Assembly: GCA_031553535.1 (NCBI GenBank)
Contig: JAVBLM010000019.1
Location: forward strand, 154,128 to 218,127
Source: Bacteroidales bacterium
GTDB lineage: Bacteria > Bacteroidota > Bacteroidia > Bacteroidales > WCHB1-69
Length of the DNA stretch: 64,000 bases
Direction: 5' to 3'
The notes beneath the pieces are model-generated. The model ran no database searches. It worked only from the letters and a program-made list of their open reading frames with translations, and had not been told where the DNA came from. Position numbers and translations under genes: made by a program. Positions 2,899-62,855 of this stretch are shown here, in pieces. Every line of letters begins with the position of its first letter. Position 1 is the stretch's first letter.

Positions 2899-3345
2899 CG
2901 GATATACTTTCACCGTATTGTGAAAGTGTTTCGACAGTAGTTTTCATACTTTCACGAAGTAGTGAAAGTATGCCGACAGCAGTTTTCATACTTTCGCAAG
3001 GTAGCGAAAGTGTGCCGACAGTAGTTTTCATACTTTCGCAGGGTAGCGAAAGTGTGCCGACAATGGTTTTCATACTTTCGCAGAGTAGTGAAAGTATGCC
3101 GACAGCAGTTTTCATACTTTCGCAGAGTAGTGAAAGTACGCCGACAGTAGTTTTCATACTTTCGCAGGGTAGTGAAAGTATGCCGACAGCGGTTTTCATA
3201 CTTTCGCAGAGTAGTGAAAGTACGCCGACAGTAGTTTTCATACTTTCGCAGGGTAGTGAAAGTATGCCGACAGCAGTTTTCATACTTTCGCAGAGTAGTG
3301 AAAGTACGCCGACAGTAGTTTTCATACTTTCGCAGTATTATGAAA
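2899..3345. repeat. tandem array A: 42-bp unit x ~10.6, each unit with a 9-bp-stem hairpin
   Basis: The unit is GTTTTCATACTTTCGCAGRGTAGTGAAAGTAYGCCGACAGYA. The anchor TGCCGA occurs at 2971/3013/3055/3097 and onward, exactly 42 apart. The inverted repeat is CATACTTTC/GAAAGTATG. Two unit subtypes alternate in the right half, giving an 84-bp higher-order repeat. The edge units are degenerate. Confidence 0.95.
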
Positions 3346-4628: not shown

Positions 4629-5715
4629 TTTGTTTGCTTTCTGTTAATACATATTTCATATCATGAGTAACCATTATCTTTACTAATTGCTCAAACGAAG
4701 TTTTTGTAGGGTTCCAGCCTAATACTGTTTTTGCTTTTGTCGGATCCCCTAACAATAGGTCGACTTCTGTCGGACGAAAATAACGTGGATCTACCTCTAC
4801 TATAGCTTCATTTGTTTTAATATCAATTCCTCTCTCATTCACTCCTTCTCCTTCCCAACGAATAGTAATCCCGGCTTCTTGAAAAGCCAATGTACAAAAG
4901 TCACGTACCGAATGCATTTCCCCGGTGGCTATCACAAAATCCTGAGCTTCTTTTTGCTGCAAAATCAACCACATACACTCAACATAATCTCGTGCATATC
5001 CCCAATCCCTTTTTGCATCCAGATTTCCCAGATAAAGTTTCTTCTGTAATTTATGAGCAATACGTGCTGCTCCCAGTGTGATTTTACGGGTAACAAAGGT
5101 CTCTCCCCTTCTTTCGCTTTCGTGATTAAATAGTATTCCATTAGAAGCATACATGCCATAGGCTTCCCTATAATTCTTCGTGATCCAAAAACCATATAAC
5201 TTTGCAACCCCATAGGGAGAACGAGGATAAAATGGCGTTGTTTCCGATTGCGGAACTTCCTGTACCAAGCCATATAATTCCGAAGTCGATGCCTGATAGA
5301 TACGGGTTTTCTTTTCCATACCCAAAATACGTATCGCCTCTAGAATACGTAAAGTCCCTATTGCATCACTTTCTGCCGTATATTCCGGAACTTCAAAAGA
5401 AACTTTCACATGTGACTGCGCCGCAAGGTTATACACCTCATCGGGTTGCACCTGCTGAATAATACGAAGCAAAGACGACGAATCCGTCATATCACCGTAA
5501 TGTAAATTAATATTACGCTCTTTCTTTGTATCTTCAATCCATTGTTCAAAATACAAATGTTCTATACGCCCCGTATTAAAACTTGAACTTCTACGAAGAA
5601 TTCCATGCACTTCATAGTTCTTTTCCAATAAAAACTCGGCAAGAAATGACCCATCTTGTCCTGTAATTCCTGTAATAAGAGCTATTTTTTTACCCATATT
5701 TATTCTATTTATCAA
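4621..5715 (-). CDS. gmd: GDP-mannose 4,6-dehydratase
   Basis: 364 aa, collinear with E. coli Gmd as I recall it ([61 protein letters not shown]). The internal Met at 5697 ([10 protein letters not shown]) is an equally plausible start. Confidence 0.9.
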
Positions 5716-11373: not shown

Positions 11374-11450
11374 GCGGAAGTAGCTCAGTTTGGTAGAGCA
11401 TCAGCTTCCCAAGCTGAGGGTCGCGAGTTCGAGTCTCGTTTTCCGCTCCA
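11374..11450 (+). tRNA. tRNA-Gly (anticodon CCC)
   Basis: Manual cloverleaf: acceptor GCGGAAG/TTTCCGC, D arm GCTC-AGTTTGGTA-GAGC, anticodon arm TCAGC-TTCCCAA-GCTGA, T arm GCGAG-TTCGAGT-CTCGT, with an encoded CCA. Confidence 0.9.
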
Positions 11451-15302: not shown

Positions 15303-15492
15303 TTAATGCCGGATATTCAAGCATTAAATATATGTAATAAAAGTTAATGTCAGATATTCGGGCATTAAATATATGTGATAAAAGTTAATGCCGGATATTC
15401 AGGCATTAAATATATATGATAAAAGTTAATGTCAGACATTCAGGCATTAAATATATGTGATAAAAGTTAATGTCAGATATTCGGGCATTATA
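15303..15492. repeat. tandem array F: 41-bp unit x ~4.6 with 8-bp-stem hairpin
   Basis: The unit is TTAATGYCRGAYATTCRGGCATTAAATATATGTGATAAAAG. The anchor TTAATG occurs at 15303/15344/15385/15426/15467. The inverted repeat is TTAATGCC/GGCATTAA. Confidence 0.9.
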
Positions 15493-15953
15493 TATATTAA
15501 AAATAGTTGTAGGAAAATAAATCAATATCCGGGACCTTTTATCTTTTATCCTATGAAAACAAATCAAGGCCGGGAATCTATTGTAGATTATTGCCGGCCA
15601 TTATCTGCTTTCAGGGGATAAATGTTCATTTACAGTATAAAATCAAAATATAACTTCATATCAATGGCGATGTTTTCTTTATTATTTACAGAAGTTATGC
15701 AAGATATAGAAATGATGATTAATTCAAAATCCAAGGAGAAGAATTTAAGAAAAATCTGCGGATACCTGCGAAATCTGCGGGAAAAATATTCAGTGAATAA
15801 TGAATAATGAAAAGTGAATGACAAATAAATCCCCTCAACTCCGCAACCTCGAATCCCGAACCTCAAATCTTGTATTAATTTTTATTTTTTAAAACAATTC
15901 TTTCACTGATTTGTTAATAAGTCTGTAAATATATTTAATAAAATATTCATATT

Positions 15954-24218: not shown

Positions 24219-25049
24219 ATGGCAACCGCTAAACAAGGTAAAGACATGAAAATTAAGGAAAATAAAGAGGTTTCAAAATCAAGAAACAGTAATGATCTTG
24301 AATCCGGCATAGATAAATCCGTAGAAAACACACTAATTGCTTTATATAAATTGCAAACTATTTATTCTAGAATTGACAAAGTTCGCGTAATAAGAGGGGA
24401 GCTTCCTTTGGAAGTAAACGATTTGGAAGACGAATGTTTGGGTTTGCAAGCTCGTATAGATAAATTTGAAGAAACAGCTAAAGACTATCAGAATCAGATA
24501 TACGAAAAACAGGAATTAATAAAAAAATCACAAGCCCAAATCGCCAAATACAAAGAACAGTTAGATAATGTTCGTAATAACAGGGAATACGATGCATTAA
24601 GCAAAGAAATTGAATACGAAGAGCTTGATATACAATTGAACGAAAAAAAGATCCGCGAACTCATCGCAAAAATTACAGATAAGAAAGCTGAAATAGAAAG
24701 CTTAAGCATTGAATTGGGAAGAGCAAAAAAAGATTTAGACTCTAAAAAGGAAGAATTAAATACAATTATTGCTGAAACAGAAAAAGAAGAAAATGATTTG
24801 TTAGCACAAGCCAAAGAACAAGAAGTAAAAATTGAACCTCGAATGCTTAATGCGTTTACACGTATCCGGACAAATATGCGTAATGGCTTAGCTACAGTAA
24901 AAGTTGATAGAAATGCTTGTGGTGGATGTTTTAGTAAAATATCTCCTCAACGTCAATTAGATATACGCATGCATAAGAAAATCATTGTATGTGAATTTTG
25001 TGGTCGTATCTTGGTAGATGATGAGATAGCTTCATTAGCTTCCGAATAA
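24219..25049 (+). CDS. coiled-coil zinc-ribbon protein (COG1579 type)
   Basis: 276 aa with a long Glu/Lys coiled coil and a C-terminal CGGC...CEFCGR zinc ribbon. This family is commonly found next to NIF3. Confidence 0.75.
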   Translation: MATAKQGKDMKIKENKEVSKSRNSNDLESGIDKSVENTLIALYKLQTIYSRIDKVRVIRGELPLEVNDLEDECLGLQARIDKFEETAKDYQNQIYEKQELIKKSQAQIAKYKEQLDNVRNNREYDALSKEIEYEELDIQLNEKKIRELIAKITDKKAEIESLSIELGRAKKDLDSKKEELNTIIAETEKEENDLLAQAKEQEVKIEPRMLNAFTRIRTNMRNGLATVKVDRNACGGCFSKISPQRQLDIRMHKKIIVCEFCGRILVDDEIASLASE

Positions 25050-25072
25050 ATTTATTATCATCAACAAATCGA

Positions 25073-25113
25073 GTAGGAAGAAAACAAAGTAGTTTTCTTC
25101 CTACTTTCGTTTT
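25073..25113 (+). terminator. rho-independent terminator of the zinc-ribbon gene
   Basis: 13-bp perfect stem GTAGGAAGAAAAC / GTTTTCTTCCTAC with a 6-nt loop, followed by TTTCGTTTT. Confidence 0.75.
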
Positions 25114-25203
25114 CCGACCTCTCACACCACCGTACGTGCCGTTCGGCATACGGCGGTTCCTTACTTACGATACAACTTTACGATAACAATCCATCAGAAA
25201 TGG

Positions 25204-25542
25204 CTAGTTGGCTCGTTTGAGATTATCGTTGCTCAAGGCACGACTAAGAATAAAACTATGGGCAATATGCCAATAACCCTTGCGGGTATTAGCCCATTCC
25301 CACGCCTTTCTCTTATCAATACCACAGCGTTTGAGATTCTCAAAGCGGGTCTTCACTCTCTTCCAGCATTTCCAGATACACATACGGAGCCTGCTCCTAT
25401 ACCATTCATTCAATGTTTGAAGACGGTTCTTCATATCTGCCAGCTTGAATACTTCAAGCCAACCCAGTATAAAGGAGCCAAGAGAGCTTTTACGCTTCCC
25501 GTAGCCCAGACCGTTACTACGACCGGTCAATTCCTTTTGCAA
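25204..25542 (-). pseudogene. group II intron reverse transcriptase/maturase, C-terminal (X/maturase) fragment only
   Basis: The 112-aa ORF FILGWLEVFKLADMKNRLQTLNEWYRSRLRMCIWKCWKRVKTRFENLKRCGIDKRKAWEWANTRKGYWHIAHS matches the conserved C-terminus of bacterial intron-encoded proteins. The ~300-aa RT palm/fingers region is absent. Confidence 0.8.
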
Positions 25543-25618
25543 GAATACTATTTTTCCCCTTCTTATTTATCCTTTCATTTTCTTATTATCCTGAAAACTT
25601 TACCGGTTTCGCAGGAAA

Positions 25619-25921
25619 AAGAAAATATTTTACTGTTTGGGATAGACATTTTGGGGGAATCTGAAAACATTTTGCCATTTAGTTTGGATATTTTCAGAAG
25701 ATCCGAAAGCAACAAACCATTTGGTTTGGACGTTTCGGAAGATCCGAAAGAAGCAAACCATTTGGTTTGGACGTTTCGGAAGATCCGAAAGAAGCAAACC
25801 ATTTGGTTTGGACGTTTCGGAAGATCCGAAAGAAGCAAACCATTTGGTTTGGACGTTTCGGAAAGACCCGAAAGAAGCAAACCATTTGGTTTGGACGCTT
25901 CGGAAAGATCCGAAAGAAGCA
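25619..25921. repeat. tandem array B: 41-bp unit x ~7 with nested palindrome, inside the intron remnant
   Basis: The unit is GATCCGAAAGAAGCAAACCATTTGGTTTGGACGTTTCGGAA. The anchor ATCCGAA occurs at 25701/25742/25783/25824. The outer inverted repeat is TCCGAAA/TTTCGGA and the inner palindrome is CAAACCA-TT-TGGTTTG. The leftmost units are degenerate. Confidence 0.92.
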
Positions 25922-26528
25922 TCTATATTATATCGAATATTAAGATAAGTTATGAATGATTTTTCCGGAGAGGTTTATTCTTTATTAATGTCCTATCAGA
26001 ACACTTATCAAACAGGCAGGCCTATATCTGTGAGAGACACACTAAGGGGGATATTATCCGTACTTGAAAAAGTCTCAATTTATACCCCGAACTCACATTA
26101 CAATAAGGTTCTGTCCTTCAATACTTGGTAAGGTTCCTGCTGTACATTTTTTTTCATGGGCAGGCTTGTGTCCGTATCTACTATGGCATCGGCTGACTTC
26201 TCACAGCAAGCTTTATACTCCGTGCTTCCGAAAAAAAACATCCGCACGTCTGTGAGACCTCCCCAGTTAAGATTCTATTCTTTCCATCTTATACCTGCTT
26301 GATTTACCATGAACGTTCCCAATAGCTATGGGGCTTTGTTTTGTTTAGCAAACGATCCCACATTCTTTGGCCTTATATCAAGTTTCTGTGCGTCAGGCCA
26401 GATGTTTGCCGCTGACTTCCTTCAGATTCCTTCTCGCGATAGACACCCTTGTCGTTGGCTATACTCTTCCCGCTATCTGGGCGTGTTTAGGACTTGCACC
26501 TGTTAGAATAAAACCATGCTGAACGAAC

Positions 26529-26563
26529 CAAAAAAAAGGAGTGATTTTATCACTCCTTTTTTT
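26529..26563 (-). terminator. bidirectional hairpin terminator after the CNNM/CBS gene
   Basis: GGAGTGAT-TTT-ATCACTCC is flanked by A-run and T-run, so it gives a U-tract on either strand. It overlaps the stop codon region. Confidence 0.7.
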
Positions 26564-27893
26564 ATTCCTTCTGTTTCTCTTCTTCGATAATTATTACCAA
26601 AACTTTGTCTATTCTTGCTGCATCCATATTAAGTATCTCAAAGCTAAATTCTTTCCATCGAATAATTTCCCCAACTTGCGGAATATGCTCTGCTATGTCC
26701 AAAATAAGTCCACTCAATGTATTAAAGTCATACTCCTGAAAAATATCTTCCATATCAAAGTATGACAGAAAATCATAAAATGAATATTGTCCATCAACAA
26801 TCCACGTCCCATCTTCCTGTTCAATAATTGTTTCTTCATCATCATCAGGTAGGCTCATCCTACCAAGCAATGCTTCCATAATATCCACAGATGTAATCAT
26901 TCCCTGTAGCGAACCAAACTCATCTATAACAAACCCATAATATAACTGAGACTCTTTAAAACACTGCAATGCTTTATATGTACTGGTATTCTCCGGAAAA
27001 AAAACAGGATCACTAATAAATTCTCTGACATTAATCCTGCCGGAAGAAACACTTCCAAAGATATCTTTTAAAGAAATCACCCCTATAAGATTATCTAAAT
27101 GTTTATCAATTACGGGATAATATCCATGCATATCTTCATATACCACTGAACGAATAGTTTCTAAATCATCATTCACATCTATGCATATCAGATCGCTACG
27201 ATATGTCATTACAGAAGCTACATCCCTATCTCCCAGATCAAACACACGTTCAACAATGTCGTGCTCCACATCTTGAACTTCTCCCTCACTTGCACCTAAT
27301 TTAACTGCTGCAAGAATCTCTTCCTCTGTTATCTTACTTTCCTCTGACGGCTTTAGTCTTAACATACGCATAATCAATCTAACAGTAGACTCCAAAAGCC
27401 ACACAAAAGGATAAAAAAGCTTAGAAAAGAATTGCAAAAAACCAGAAAAACGACGTAGTAGTGTTTCCGGAAAAGTCATTGCCAATCGTTTTGGAATCAA
27501 TTCTCCTAATACAATAGTAAAATAAGTTATCACAAACACGACTATTACTTTTGCGATTATTCCGGCATAGTGCGCTATTGAAGGAAAAATTCCAACTAGC
27601 CAATCCCGTAAATAGGACGCCAATGTATCTCCACTATAGACCCCTGTTAAAATTCCAATCAAAGTAATTCCAACCTGAACTGTGGAAAGGAACCTATCCG
27701 GATTATCCATTAAAACCAATGCTTTCTTGGCGCCGCGTTTATCCGCTTTAGCTAAAACATTCATCTTGAGCTTACGCGAAGAAATTAAGGATATTTCAGA
27801 CAAGGAAAGCATTCCGTTGAATAAAATCAATAATAATATGATGAATATTTCCATTATAATATAATATTGAAAAAAAGAGTACCCACTTAGCAA
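26562..27893 (-). CDS. CNNM/DUF21-CBS-CorC_HlyC family protein (hemolysin/TlyC-like, putative divalent-cation transporter)
   Basis: 443 aa with an N-terminal 4-TM DUF21 (NGMLSLSEISLISS), tandem CBS domains and a C-terminal CorC/HlyC transporter-associated domain. Met14 (start 27854) is probably the true start. Confidence 0.85.
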   Translation of the reverse strand: MLSGYSFFQYYIIMEIFIILLLILFNGMLSLSEISLISSRKLKMNVLAKADKRGAKKALVLMDNPDRFLSTVQVGITLIGILTGVYSGDTLASYLRDWLVGIFPSIAHYAGIIAKVIVVFVITYFTIVLGELIPKRLAMTFPETLLRRFSGFLQFFSKLFYPFVWLLESTVRLIMRMLRLKPSEESKITEEEILAAVKLGASEGEVQDVEHDIVERVFDLGDRDVASVMTYRSDLICIDVNDDLETIRSVVYEDMHGYYPVIDKHLDNLIGVISLKDIFGSVSSGRINVREFISDPVFFPENTSTYKALQCFKESQLYYGFVIDEFGSLQGMITSVDIMEALLGRMSLPDDDEETIIEQEDGTWIVDGQYSFYDFLSYFDMEDIFQEYDFNTLSGLILDIAEHIPQVGEIIRWKEFSFEILNMDAARIDKVLVIIIEEEKQKE

Positions 27894-39558: not shown

Positions 39559-39629
39559 CAGGAGCAGAGAGATTCGAACTCCCATCAATGGTTTTGGAGA
39601 CCACTATTCTGCCGTTGAACTATGCTCCT
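39559..39629 (-). tRNA. tRNA-Trp (anticodon CCA)
   Basis: The minus strand reads AGGAGCA-TA-GTTC..GAAT-A-GTGGT-CTCCAAA-ACCAT-TGAT-GGGAG-TTCGAAT-CTCTC-TGCTCCT-G (71 nt). No CCA is encoded. Confidence 0.9.
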
Positions 39630-39654
39630 AAAAGGGAAGCAATAAATGCTTCCC
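39630..39654 (-). terminator. hairpin between tuf and tRNA-Trp (terminator/processing hairpin)
   Basis: The minus strand reads GGGAAGCA-TTTAT-TGCTTCCC followed by TTTT, which abuts the tRNA-Trp 5' end. Confidence 0.5.
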
Positions 39655-39678
39655 TCCAATTATAAAAACAATTTTGTA

Positions 39679-40866
39679 TTAATCCAAAATTTCTGTCACC
39701 TGACCGGCTCCTACGGTTCTTCCTCCTTCACGGATTGCAAAACGTAAGTTAAGGTTCAAGGCGATTTCCGATATTAATGTAACGTCTATTGTTAAGTTAT
39801 CGCCAGGCATAACCATTTCTACTCCTGCAGGTAATGTAATTTCACCTGTTACGTCAGTGGTTCTGAAATAGAACTGTGGACGATATTTGTTATGAAATGG
39901 GGTATGACGACCACCTTCTTCTTTCTTTAAGATATAAACTTCCGCTTTGAAATGTTTATGAGGTTTAATTGAACCTGGTTTTGCGATAACCATTCCACGA
40001 CGAATTTCATCTTTGTCTATACCGCGAAGTAATAAACCGGCGTTGTCACCAGCTTCACCTTCGTCTAATATTTTGCGGAACATTTCAACTCCCGTAACAA
40101 CAGATTTCAATTTCTCTGCTCCCATACCAATAATATCAACAGGGTCTCCTGTATGTATGATACCGGTTTCGATTCTACCTGTAGCAACAGTACCACGGCC
40201 TGTGATAGAGAAAACGTCTTCTATCGGCATTAAGAAATCTTTATCTTTCAAACGAGGAGGAAGTTGAATGTAAGTATCTACATTATCCATCAATTCAACG
40301 ATTTTTTCCACCCACTTTTCGTCATCGTTCAATCCGCCTAAAGCAGAACCGCGAATAACAGGTGCATTATCACCGTCATATCCATAGAAAGACAATAAAT
40401 CACGAATTTCCATTTCAACGAGATCTAACAATTCTTCATCGTCAACCATGTCACATTTGTTCATAAATACGACCAAACGAGGAATCCCTACCTGACGACC
40501 TAAAAGGATATGCTCACGCGTTTGTGGCATAGGGCCATCTGTAGCAGCAACTACCAAAATAGCTCCATCCATCTGAGCCGCACCCGTTACCATGTTTTTA
40601 ATATAGTCAGCGTGACCCGGACAGTCAACGTGAGCATAGTGACGGTTTAGCGTTTGGTATTCAACATGAGATGTATTAATAGTAATACCACGTTCTTTTT
40701 CTTCCGGAGCATTATCAATAGAGTCAAAACTTCTGAACTCTGACCAGCCTTTCTTTGCAAGCACTTGGGTAATTGCCGCAGTCAAAGTAGTTTTACCGTG
40801 GTCAATATGACCGATAGTTCCAATGTTTACGTGAGATTTGGACCTGTCAAATTTTTCTTTTGCCAT
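39679..40866 (-). CDS. tuf: elongation factor Tu
   Basis: 395 aa with [14 protein letters not shown] and NKCD, collinear with Bacteroides EF-Tu. Confidence 0.98.
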
Positions 40867-40915
40867 TTCTTTAAACTTTTAAGGATATTTGTTATAGATT
40901 TAAATGCGAAACTAG

Positions 40916-40987
40916 AGCCATTGACGAGAGTTGAACTCGTGACCTCTTCCTTACCAAGGAAGCGCTCTACCACTGAGCTACAACGGC
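40916..40987 (-). tRNA. tRNA-Thr (anticodon GGT)
   Basis: The minus strand reads GCCGTTG-TA-GCTC-AGTGGTA-GAGC-G-CTTCC-TTGGTAA-GGAAG-AGGTC-ACGAG-TTCAACT-CTCGT-CAATGGC-T (72 nt). Confidence 0.9.
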
Positions 40988-40995
40988 TTCTATCG

Positions 40996-41068
40996 AGCGG
41001 AAGACGGGGCTCGAACCCGCCACCTATAGCTTGGAAGGCTATCGCTCTACCAAATGAGCTACTTCCGC
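40996..41068 (-). tRNA. tRNA-Gly (anticodon TCC)
   Basis: The minus strand reads GCGGAAG-TA-GCTC-ATTTGGTA-GAGC-G-ATAGC-CTTCCAA-GCTAT-AGGTG-GCGGG-TTCGAGC-CCCGT-CTTCCGC-T (73 nt). Confidence 0.9.
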
Positions 41069-41124
41069 AAAAACAAAGACAGACAATATAGATACACTTA
41101 TTGCCGTTCTTCATTCAATACTCG

Positions 41125-41206
41125 TGGGGGGAGGAGGATTCGAACCTCCGAAGGCTTCGCCAACAGATTTACAGTCTGCCCCATTTGACCGCTCTGGTAT
41201 CCCCCC
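41125..41206 (-). tRNA. tRNA-Tyr (anticodon GTA)
   Basis: 82 nt with a long variable arm. Anticodon arm CAGAC-TGTAAAT-CTG..., acceptor GGGGGGA/TCCCCCC, T loop TTCGAAT. Confidence 0.88.
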
Positions 41207-41233
41207 ATTGAATACAATCATTCAAAGAACGTG

Positions 41234-41307
41234 AGCCACCAGAGGGATTCGAACCCCCGACCCGCTGATTACAAATCAGCCGCTCTGGCCAACTGAGCTA
41301 CGGTGGC
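41234..41307 (-). tRNA. tRNA-Thr (anticodon TGT)
   Basis: The minus strand reads GCCACCG-TA-GCTC-AGTTGGCCA-GAGC-G-GCTGA-TTTGTAA-TCAGC-GGGTC-GGGGG-TTCGAAT-CCCTC-TGGTGGC-T (74 nt). Confidence 0.9.
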
Positions 41308-54446: not shown

Positions 54447-54654
54447 TTGAGAGGATTTAACGTTACAAATTCAAGATTCAACGTTCAAGATTATAAATAA
54501 TTTTTCTGCATTTTATCTATTTTATCTGCTTTATCTGCTTTATCGATTTTATCAGTTTAATTTTTCCCGCAGACCCCGCAGATTTTCCGCAGATTTTTTA
54601 TTGTAAAATTCGCATTACTAATTCTTAATTCTTAATTTTTAATTCTTAATTCTC

Positions 54655-55150
54655 CAGAGCAGGCGTTCAGATGCCTTAGATACCTGCTTGCAATTCCGGA
54701 CAAAGGTTCAGGAACTCCTGAATACCTGTTTTCAATCTCAGACAAGTATCCGGGAAGTCTCGAAACCCTGTTTCCAGTTCCGGACAATGGTTCAGGAAGC
54801 CCTGGAACCCAGTTTGAAAATTCAAACAAGGAATACAAAAGGGGAAAAACCCTGTTTAAAAATCTAAACAGGGAATATCGCAGATGGAAAACCCTGTTTG
54901 AAAATCCAAACAAGGAATTCCACAGGAGGAAAACCCTGTTTGAAAATTCAAACAGGTAATACCATGACAAAGACTGCCTGTTTGAAAATCAAAACAGGAT
55001 TCATTACGGCAAAGACTGCCTGTTTAAAAATAAAAACAGGGTACATTACGACAAAGGCTGCCTGTTTAGAAATAAAAACAGGGTACACTATGACAAAGGC
55101 TGCCTGTTTGAAAATCAAAACAGGGTCTGTTGCAATGGAAAGAACCGGGA
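54655..55150. repeat. tandem array D: 42-bp unit x ~11.8, two diverged sub-families in one strict register
   Basis: CCTG anchors at 54683, 54725, 54767, 54851, 54893, 54935, 54977, 55019, 55061 and 55103 are all multiples of 42 apart. The right-hand units are GCCTGTTTGAAAATCAAAACAGG+19 nt (inverted repeat CCTGTTT/AAACAGG). The left-hand units carry the palindrome TTCAGGA-AC-TCCTGAA. Confidence 0.93.
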
Positions 55151-62469: not shown

Positions 62470-62855
62470 TTCCCCCTGTAACATCTGTATAAACCTTTCC
62501 GAGAACTGGGACACCTATAAACGAGAGTAAATATATCTTTCCCAGAATTGGGACACCTATAAACGAGGATAAATATACCTTTCCCAGAGTTGGGACACCT
62601 ATAAACGAGGATGAATATACCTTTCCCAGGATTGGGATACCTCTAAACGAGAGTGAATATATCTTTCCCAGGATTGGGATACCTCTAAACGAGAGTGAAT
62701 ATATCTTTCCCAGGATTGGGATACCTCTAAACGAGGATAAATATACCTCTCCCAGAGTTGGGACACCTCTAAACGAGGGTGAATATACCTTTCCCAGGGT
62801 TGGGATACCTCCAAACGAGAGTGAATATATCTTTCCCAGAGCTGGGAAACATTCA
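62470..62855. repeat. tandem array E: 42-bp unit x ~9 with short palindrome
   Basis: The unit is CTTTCCCAGRRTTGGGAYACCTMTAAACGAGRRTRAATATAY. The anchor TCCCAG occurs at 62540/62582/62624/62666/62708/62750/62792/62834. The palindrome is TCCCA-GAAT-TGGGA. Confidence 0.93.

Follow-up and report, generated by a model that had tools for sequence, protein, structure and literature searches.

A class C group II intron relic with a 41/42-bp repeat array in domain IV in an uncultured Bacteroidales genome

A class C group II intron between convergent genes

A 64,000-nucleotide stretch of Bacteroidales contig JAVBLM010000019.1 (assembly GCA_031553535.1; hereafter, the window) contains, in the spacer between a CNNM/CorC-type transporter gene and a convergent gene for a C4 zinc-ribbon protein, a group II intron on the minus strand at positions 25068–26528 (1,461 nt; 5′ GUUCG, 3′ CUCGAU). 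An earlier note, made from the sequence alone, had described here a decayed intron whose reverse transcriptase (RT) region was replaced by a 41-bp tandem array, array B. A scan of the whole window with Rfam models at their gathering thresholds revealed RF02001 (group-II-D1D4-3) at 26272–26443 of the minus strand, over the full model (1–170), with 133 bits and an E-value of 3e-27 (gathering score 32), and RF00029 (Intron_gpII, domains V and VI) at 25068–25158 of the minus strand, with 46.3 bits (gathering score 40). Domains I–IV and V/VI are thus in the correct order and on the same strand, and with the Pfam GIIM match between them, the group II hallmarks recognized in the note are far beyond chance. 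The note had staked its reading on a covariance-model match within 25980–26505, and when the search was run, the RF02001 match fell inside that stretch. The 5′ domain I word CGCCCAGATAGCGGG is also present, at 26469–26483, one position away from where it had been placed.

About 30 relatives of the intron were collected from genomes and metagenomes by motif scans of GTDB genomes and JGI metagenomes, and through the DNA loci of proteins matching the 112-amino acid protein remnant of the window copy. The protein search itself returned only short proteins (<200 amino acids), and full-length references were recovered via the DNA loci. One relative, L036 (metagenome contig OCSH01002291.1), encodes an intact 467-amino acid protein and is 88.9% identical to the 5′ part of the window intron and 83% identical to its 3′ part. 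The intron 5′ end, G26528 (GUUCGUUCAGCAUGG...), was set by alignment to L011, L009, L001, and L036. The last base of the intron is T25068: past CTCGAT, six relatives are no longer homologous to one another, and the RF00029 match ends at the identical base. The span of 25095–26505 proposed earlier was therefore too short on both sides. The boundary sequences are GUUCG at the 5′ end (consensus GUGYG) and ...CUCGAU at the 3′ end (consensus AY). GUUCG is also the 5′ end of L009, L011, L019, L033, L037, and the protein-encoding L036, while L001 begins with GUGUG; being common to close relatives, GUUCG is a trait of the subfamily.

The intron starts 2 nt past the T8 run of the CorC gene terminator and ~9 nt past the terminator stem. 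The note had set the 5′ end too deep inside the element and so arrived at 35–60 nt, but the niche that it had named for class C (IIC) introns was borne out: a 5′-motif scan showed that the window intron and eight independent relatives begin 2–5 nt past a hairpin and T-run and that the sequence upstream of them folds at −17 to −41 kcal/mol, and L036 likewise starts directly behind such a structure. IIC introns are known to occupy the position directly behind an intrinsic-terminator hairpin and T-run, in sense orientation (PMC1702495, PMC4748821). In comparisons with solved structures, the protein of L036, the closest intact relative, matched the GsI-IIC RT best (2.5e-121), and it matched the IIC proteins of Eubacterium rectale and Roseburia intestinalis at 1e-91 to 1e-117 (E. 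rectale, 5e-117). Matches to LtrA, a IIA protein (1e-44), and to the maturase/RT chain of 6ME0 (9.2e-33), which we take to be the IIB T.el4h protein, were weaker. The L036 protein consists of RT and X domains and has no endonuclease domain, as expected of class C; this assignment is based on best matches rather than on phylogeny. In domain V of the window copy, A is followed by CCGCCGUAU, and alignment to the canonical GAGCCGUAU places CGC at the position of the catalytic triad. CGC instead of AGC at this position is a IIC trait, seen in the Oceanobacillus iheyensis structure. The element is a class C group II intron, as follows from its sense-oriented post-terminator position, the IIC-best matches of the L036 protein, and CGC in domain V.

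Loss of the reverse transcriptase and the DNA in its place

The full-length protein of L001 was used as a tblastn query against the window. Only residues 345–467 were aligned, at 25536–25168 (80% identity, E 7e-62), and no remnant of the RT was found anywhere in the 64 kb at E-values up to 10. What is left of the protein (25168–25537, minus strand) is the maturase (X/thumb) remnant, i.e., the last 123 of ~467 residues, which are 82% identical to those of L036. The open reading frame (ORF) at 25204–25542, minus strand, which had been taken for a maturase C-terminus, indeed matches Pfam GIIM (E 3.5e-13), the sole Pfam domain there, and it ends in a premature TAG (25204–25206) 11 codons ahead of the natural stop. 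The claim that the RT region was lost while both ribozyme ends and the maturase C-terminus were kept thus stood. The window copy does not have the RT–maturase X protein that an autonomous retroelement encodes in domain IV; it is certainly non-autonomous and without an encoded RT.

The remnant appears to have evolved under relaxed constraint, as judged from its premature stop and from its private nucleotide changes, 16 of which create novel amino acids vs. six that preserve them. The corresponding ratios are 2:4 in L036 and 0:2 in L043. This comparison is a rough test. Six of the changes in the remnant strike residues that are invariant in eight relatives. The remnant appears to be drifting as a pseudogene, and in this respect the description of the intron as "decayed" was apt.

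Both deletion junctions, 26092|26091 and ~25538, are agreed upon by six relatives (L011, L036, L043, L039, L042, and L037). Homology on the 5′ side stops after ...UUAUUGUAA(U)GUGAGU, ~30 nt upstream of where the relatives have their start codon, and returns on the 3′ side with AAAGGAAYUGAC.... The segment between these points, 1,042–1,050 nt in the six relatives, consists of the protein leader, the start codon, and codons 1–344, that is, the whole RT domain; this is more than the ~900 nt of coding sequence estimated before. Most of the conserved leader around the start codon went with it. When RNAalifold was applied to the leader and start region of ten relatives in a search for a domain IVa stem-loop, sequence conservation was high and no informative covariation was detected.

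In place of the leader and RT coding sequence, the window copy has 554 nt of other DNA (25538–26091, minus strand), to which we refer as the filler. The gap between the retained parts had been put at ~420 bp, and domain II/III-like sequence had been followed down to ~25980; in fact, homology stops at 26092, and 25923–26091 is unrelated filler. The filler is AT-rich (32–41% GC, vs. 45% in the intron parts), and about half of it is array B. Hence, the RT region was replaced, as proposed, but by the filler as a whole rather than by the array. When the parts of the filler were aligned locally, one by one, with the segment of L036 that the window copy has lost, they scored the same as shuffled sequences. 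The filler is, therefore, a replacement, and the possibility that it is a decayed RT ORF was ruled out. Searches for a source of the filler came up empty in the remainder of the window (blastn-short), in all of the fetched loci (blastn), and in plasmid and phage collections searched in a distant mode. Its ends have no terminal inverted repeats, and its flanks match nothing else in the window. As an RNA, the filler folds into a single long rod (z = −7.8). ORFs overlapping it gave no Pfam match, and an exact look-up of a 233-amino acid antisense ORF that crosses the array found no record.

A second element nested in domain IV, be it a twintron, an insertion sequence, or a MITE (miniature inverted-repeat transposable element), was also considered. 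It was rejected, since neither the ends of a second element nor a second intron signature could be seen. An Rfam scan of 24900–26700 at E ≤ 1 returned only noise besides the known intron matches.

Array B, a 41/42-bp tandem repeat, occupies 25676–25922. Tandem Repeats Finder reported it at 25675–25921 (period 41, 6.0 copies, 94% matches), and a register scan against the consensus resolved it into two 42-nt units (25922–25840), three identical 41-nt units (25839–25717), and a diverged unit (25716–25676). A marginal seventh unit extends to 25633. The ~300-bp array delimited earlier at 25619–25921 is thus real, but its clear extent is smaller. According to inverted-repeat analysis, the unit is quasi-palindromic (TTTCGGA-AGA-TCCGAAA plus AAACCA-TT-TGGTTT), which is why the array resembles its own reverse complement. 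The array lies within domain IV, at the site of the ORF of every intact relative, and so does reside inside a mobile element, as had been claimed. No tandem array was present within the intron or its domain IV in any of the ~30 relatives, which answers the note's question of whether other copies lack it; the counter-case envisaged in the note, intact introns with the same repeats natively in domain IV, was not encountered. JGI metagenome contigs and viral contigs yielded no match to the array unit either.

The relatives constrain the age of the array. Since every intact relative has coding sequence at this site, the array must postdate loss of the ORF in this lineage, and it is solid that the filler and the array are younger than the intact ORF of this intron lineage. 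The stronger claim of the note, that the array is later than insertion of the intron at this site, is plausible but unproven, because it assumes that the RT-less copy never moved, while mobilization in trans is possible in principle. The further claim that arrays can invade or replace sequence is likewise plausible and unproven. The three identical central units and the degenerate edges make it possible that the array expanded in place from a short seed within the filler, and its layout suggests that this expansion would have been recent.

State of the ribozyme and possible history of the relic

The retained 5′ part of the ribozyme (26092–26528, minus strand; 437 nt, delimited by the alignment of relatives and by RF02001) comprises domains I–III and the 5′ base of domain IV. 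It is 90.6% identical to L011 (Bacteroides sp. GM023) and 88.9% identical to L043. Its RF02001 score, 133 bits, is close to those of L001 (134.8) and L036 (144.3). Its 437 nt hold about 17 private changes, among them a TA insertion at 26216–26217 and a 1-nt deletion near 26134; five close relatives hold 3–22. Domain V (25126–25157, minus strand; RF00029), which had been called textbook, is indeed a canonically folding 13-bp bulged hairpin with a GAAC loop (z = −5.4), and relative to L036 and L039 it carries a compensatory exchange of C–G to U–A. The domain VI region with the 3′ splice site (25068–25123, minus strand), delineated by an inverted-repeat search and a terminator scan of both strands, contains a perfect 14-bp hairpin (25072–25085/25092–25105) that is kept in L001, L036, L039, L033, L034, and L020. 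Judged by sequence, the ribozyme (domains I–III, V, and VI) is close to those of intact relatives and not clearly decayed, so that the word "decayed" does not extend to this part of the intron, where changes are within the range of the relatives. The RNA may still be able to fold and splice, given read-through transcripts.

The domain VI hairpin (25072–25105) has a terminator-like appearance when read on the plus strand, where it is followed by TTTCGTTTT and lies 23 nt past the stop codon of the zinc-ribbon gene. The intron may, therefore, have supplied the current terminator of that gene; the antisense hairpin is the nearest terminator-like structure for it, and may be used as such.

We consider the following history likely. 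A class C intron would have retrohomed, in sense orientation, into a short spacer between convergent genes, 2 nt past the T-run of the CorC terminator. This copy, or its direct ancestor, would then have lost 1,042–1,050 nt of domain IV with the leader, start codon, and codons 1–344, and 554 nt of unrelated AT-rich DNA would have taken their place in an internal deletion with filler. Within the filler, slippage or unequal exchange would most likely have amplified a quasi-palindromic 41/42-nt unit to 6–7 copies. In the RNA, the array would form a self-contained rod in domain IV pointing away from the catalytic core, and the relic would be harmless in its spacer. Lying in non-coding DNA behind a terminator, the intron would affect its host little if at all, with one possible exception: the domain VI hairpin, on the opposite strand, would now be the nearest terminator of the zinc-ribbon gene. 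A single original element is indicated by the ranking of relatives, which is broadly equal for the 5′ and 3′ parts (L036/L043, then L033/L001, then L034/L020/L040).

Several points weigh against this history. It supplies no mechanism for making the filler. No empty-site orthologue was found, and the nearest intron-free CorC loci (77% nucleotide identity) are non-syntenic. Outside the 64-kb window, the source genome may hold other copies of the intron, with or without filler. By analogy with other group II introns, the highly conserved leader, most of which is deleted, may have been the site bound by the intron protein. Finally, RF01998 (base of domains III/IV) matches the window at 26170–26240 with a score of 25 bits, less than the gathering score (35) and than the 42.6 bits of L036, and the domain III/IV stretch has three private indels; the ribozyme may, therefore, already be impaired.

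An RT-less intron already equipped with filler and array could instead have retrohomed here with the help of a protein supplied in trans, in which case the array would predate this insertion. The well-preserved ribozyme parts would suit such an origin, as would the family habit of several copies per genome, e.g., three in the metagenome-assembled genome (MAG) Bacteroidales VLC_051, and the behavior of Logan short-read contigs of the source sample, which break off in conserved stretches of the intron (at 26291 and 25116) and thereby suggest that the sample holds other copies of the family. Yet, with its conserved leader mostly deleted, the window copy would probably serve a trans-acting protein poorly as a substrate, and its remnant drifts like a pseudogene. 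Moreover, neither the filler nor an array in domain IV was present in any of the ~30 relatives, the array unit was absent from JGI metagenomes and viral contigs, and other ORF-less copies differ in their junctions, as expected of independent deletions and not of a propagated derivative. We regard mobilization in trans as improbable. A different origin of the filler, otherwise compatible with the history we prefer, is template switching by the RT during retrohoming: having copied a broken intron RNA in its 3′ part, the enzyme would have moved to an unrelated cellular transcript bearing the array or its seed, and back to a 5′ intron fragment, so that the whole chimera arose in one step. Group II RTs such as the GsI-IIC/TGIRT enzymes, the best-match family of the L036 protein, are known for end-to-end template switching. 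The junctions are clean on both sides, no decayed ORF lies between them, and the two intron parts that the filler co-linearly separates have broadly the same closest relatives. However, neither the window nor the other sequences searched held a donor locus of the filler, the ends of the filler have no features of transcript ends such as a terminator, and a deletion with filler at the DNA level accounts for the same data. We find template switching quite improbable.

A highly improbable alternative is that two separate insertions, one that lost its 3′ part and an independent one truncated at its 5′ end, flank native intergenic DNA, with the array belonging to the original spacer and being older than both. 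Truncated copies of the latter kind do exist in the family (L005, beside an unrelated 21-bp array, is an example), and the low GC content of the filler is host-like. However, this scheme needs two insertions plus a deletion that ended near the intron boundary, there is no hairpin and T-run target ahead of the 3′ fragment, and the closest relatives of the two parts are broadly the same. The convergent genes, with one terminator that possibly works in two directions, fit an original spacer of ~55 nt.

The intron family, other arrays, and surroundings of the intron

The closest relatives, L036, L011, L043, and L039, are 83–91% identical in nucleotide sequence to the window intron over both retained parts; L042 and L037 are also close to it. 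The four share with the window copy both ends, a 38-nt extra segment within domain III/IV, and the kind of target. They differ in that they have 1,042–1,050 nt of leader and RT coding sequence where the window copy has 554 nt of filler and array, and they have no tandem repeats within the intron. Four other relatives (L010, L014, L025, and L035) are internal-deletion derivatives with essentially no filler. Their junctions differ, indicating independent deletions, and loss of the ORF is thus frequent in this family. Together, these introns document a coherent Bacteroidales IIC subfamily with a GUUCG 5′ end, the extra 38-nt domain III/IV segment, an extended domain VI hairpin, and recurrent internal deletions.

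Individual relatives display further peculiarities. MAG VLC_051 holds three copies (L010, L014, and L015), two of which are ORF-less by different simple deletions. L025 and L035 are multiply deleted, and L019 consists of two 5′ intron parts in inverted orientation. L001, a near-full-length relative, is located in a Bacteroidetes conjugative-transposon-like region (RteC, ArdA, topoisomerase). Its coding sequence (L001:5185–6588, and also L002–L004) has an in-frame TGA just ahead of the YADD motif (RGH*YVRYADD) that is identical in contigs of four samples and could mark a pseudogene or recoding. The copy at L005:4777–5793 is truncated at the 5′ end, starts at ~protein residue 310, and adjoins an unrelated array of 13 21-bp units and other short repeats, with an Rfam Acido-Lenti-1 match (5079–5123) between the array and the intron fragment. 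At L036:9522–9640, an array of 22/44-bp hairpin units (TGAAACnnnCAGTTTCA) lies directly upstream of the terminator hairpin targeted by the intron; hairpin arrays and IIC introns therefore occupy like spacers in another genome too.

Among characterized introns, the appropriate comparators are the IIC introns B.h.I1 of Bacillus halodurans, O.i.I1 of Oceanobacillus iheyensis, and GsI-IIC of Geobacillus stearothermophilus (PMC1702495, PMC4748821; PDB 6AR1, 7UIM). The window intron resembles them in its sense-oriented insertion behind a terminator, its compact ribozyme, CGC in domain V, and a family protein that has RT and X domains without an endonuclease domain. It differs from them by its 5′ GUUCG rather than GUGYG, by the absence of an RT domain, with only the last 123 residues and a premature stop left, and by the foreign DNA with an array in domain IV. 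ORF-less and internally deleted group II introns of bacteria have been reviewed (PMC4424553) and surveyed (PMC2504315). Like these, the window intron keeps its ribozyme ends, has a truncated protein gene, and is non-autonomous. A class C intron that has lost its RT is thus of a known kind, and the window copy is a routine addition to the decayed IIC introns of uncultured Bacteroidales. Unlike the plain deletions in L010, L014, L025, and L035, however, that in the window copy is accompanied by unrelated DNA of similar length and by a minisatellite. In this regard, array B gives a concrete, delimited case of a minisatellite newly arisen in DNA without a prior function, and can serve as a time marker.

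Array B is one of five large arrays in the window (2920–3335, 15303–15497, 25676–25922, 54683–55126, and 62489–62847), all of which have a period of 41–42 bp. All five are intergenic, have a short palindrome in each unit, and have no shared flanks; some show 84/126-bp higher-order structure. Pairwise, the units are mostly unrelated. The exceptions are sub-families at 54683–55126, a marginal similarity of array B to the array labeled A4b, and another of A5 to A4a (z = 3.5; 3/200 shuffles). Arrays found in ~275 kb of other Bacteroidales loci have periods of 21–24 or 44–48 bp, plus one of 35 bp, and none has a period of 41–42 bp. A literature search for 41- or 42-bp tandem repeats in Bacteroid* retrieved no papers. 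The spacer that holds the 54683–55126 arrays is a repeat-rich patchwork; just upstream of these arrays, 54483–54660 contains a 9-nt unit in 4.9 copies, an 11-nt unit in two copies, and a 7-nt unit in five.

The BrickBuilt minisatellite/MITE of Porphyromonas gingivalis has a single 23-nt unit at 19 loci and a shared leader and tail ending in small inverted repeats (PMC4596501). As in BrickBuilt, the arrays of the window are numerous, spacer-less, intergenic, and tandem, consist of imperfect copies, and belong to a Bacteroidales genome. In contrast to BrickBuilt, their units are 41–42 nt long and mostly unrelated, and neither shared flanks nor terminal inverted repeats were found. A reading of array B as a MITE of the BrickBuilt type was, therefore, rejected.

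The shared 41–42-bp period is the part of these observations that most deserves follow-up. One conjecture, to which we assign a low though not negligible probability, is that a process specific to this genome builds hairpin-bearing arrays of fixed 41–42-bp period from arbitrary non-coding sequence, array B being one of its products. Since domain IV ancestrally held an ORF, array B would then be a datable de novo case. If so, the period would be set by a mechanism or a structural constraint and not by descent from a common repeat; candidates would be the footprint of a protein spanning four helical turns, or else a defined step of slippage or recombination. The host genome is unusually rich in 41–42-bp arrays, and the array B locus could show copy-number change between strains.

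The upstream gene (26565–27893, minus strand) encodes a CNNM/CorC-type transporter with CBS domains (Pfam CNNM 3e-47, CorC_HlyC 1.5e-18, CBS 1.2e-15), and its 3′ end, with the terminator, forms the 5′ exon context of the intron. A protein identical to the product of this gene is on record in NCBI and is also encoded by one Logan contig. The nearest named homologues are proteins of Bacteroidales MAGs, at ~79% identity, and the host is an uncultured Bacteroidales lineage. The intrinsic terminator of the gene (26530–26563, minus strand), identified by an inverted-repeat search and a terminator scan, is a perfect 15-bp stem (26531–26545/26549–26563) that overlaps the CorC stop codon. The 50 nt upstream of the intron fold at −17.2 kcal/mol. 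The T8 run (26530–26537) on the minus strand is the target motif of the intron, and because both an A-run and a T-run flank the stem, the terminator could work in both directions. The convergent downstream gene (24219–25049, plus strand; Pfam Zn_ribbon_9 1.4e-12, ORF list) provides the 3′ exon context, its stop codon being 18 nt from the intron 3′ end. Before the insertion, the spacer was probably only ~55 nt long, with a single terminator able to serve both genes. The closest orthologues of the CorC gene, at L026–L029 (73–77% nucleotide identity), are intron-free, but since they are followed by different downstream genes (i.e., synteny is lost), these four loci give no exact empty site.

The wider surroundings of the intron are an ordinary core-genome context. 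Six tRNA genes are present at 39559–41307 and 11374–11447, five of them on the minus strand near the EF-Tu, ribosomal-protein, and rpoB–rpoC genes, and one on the plus strand at 11374–11447.

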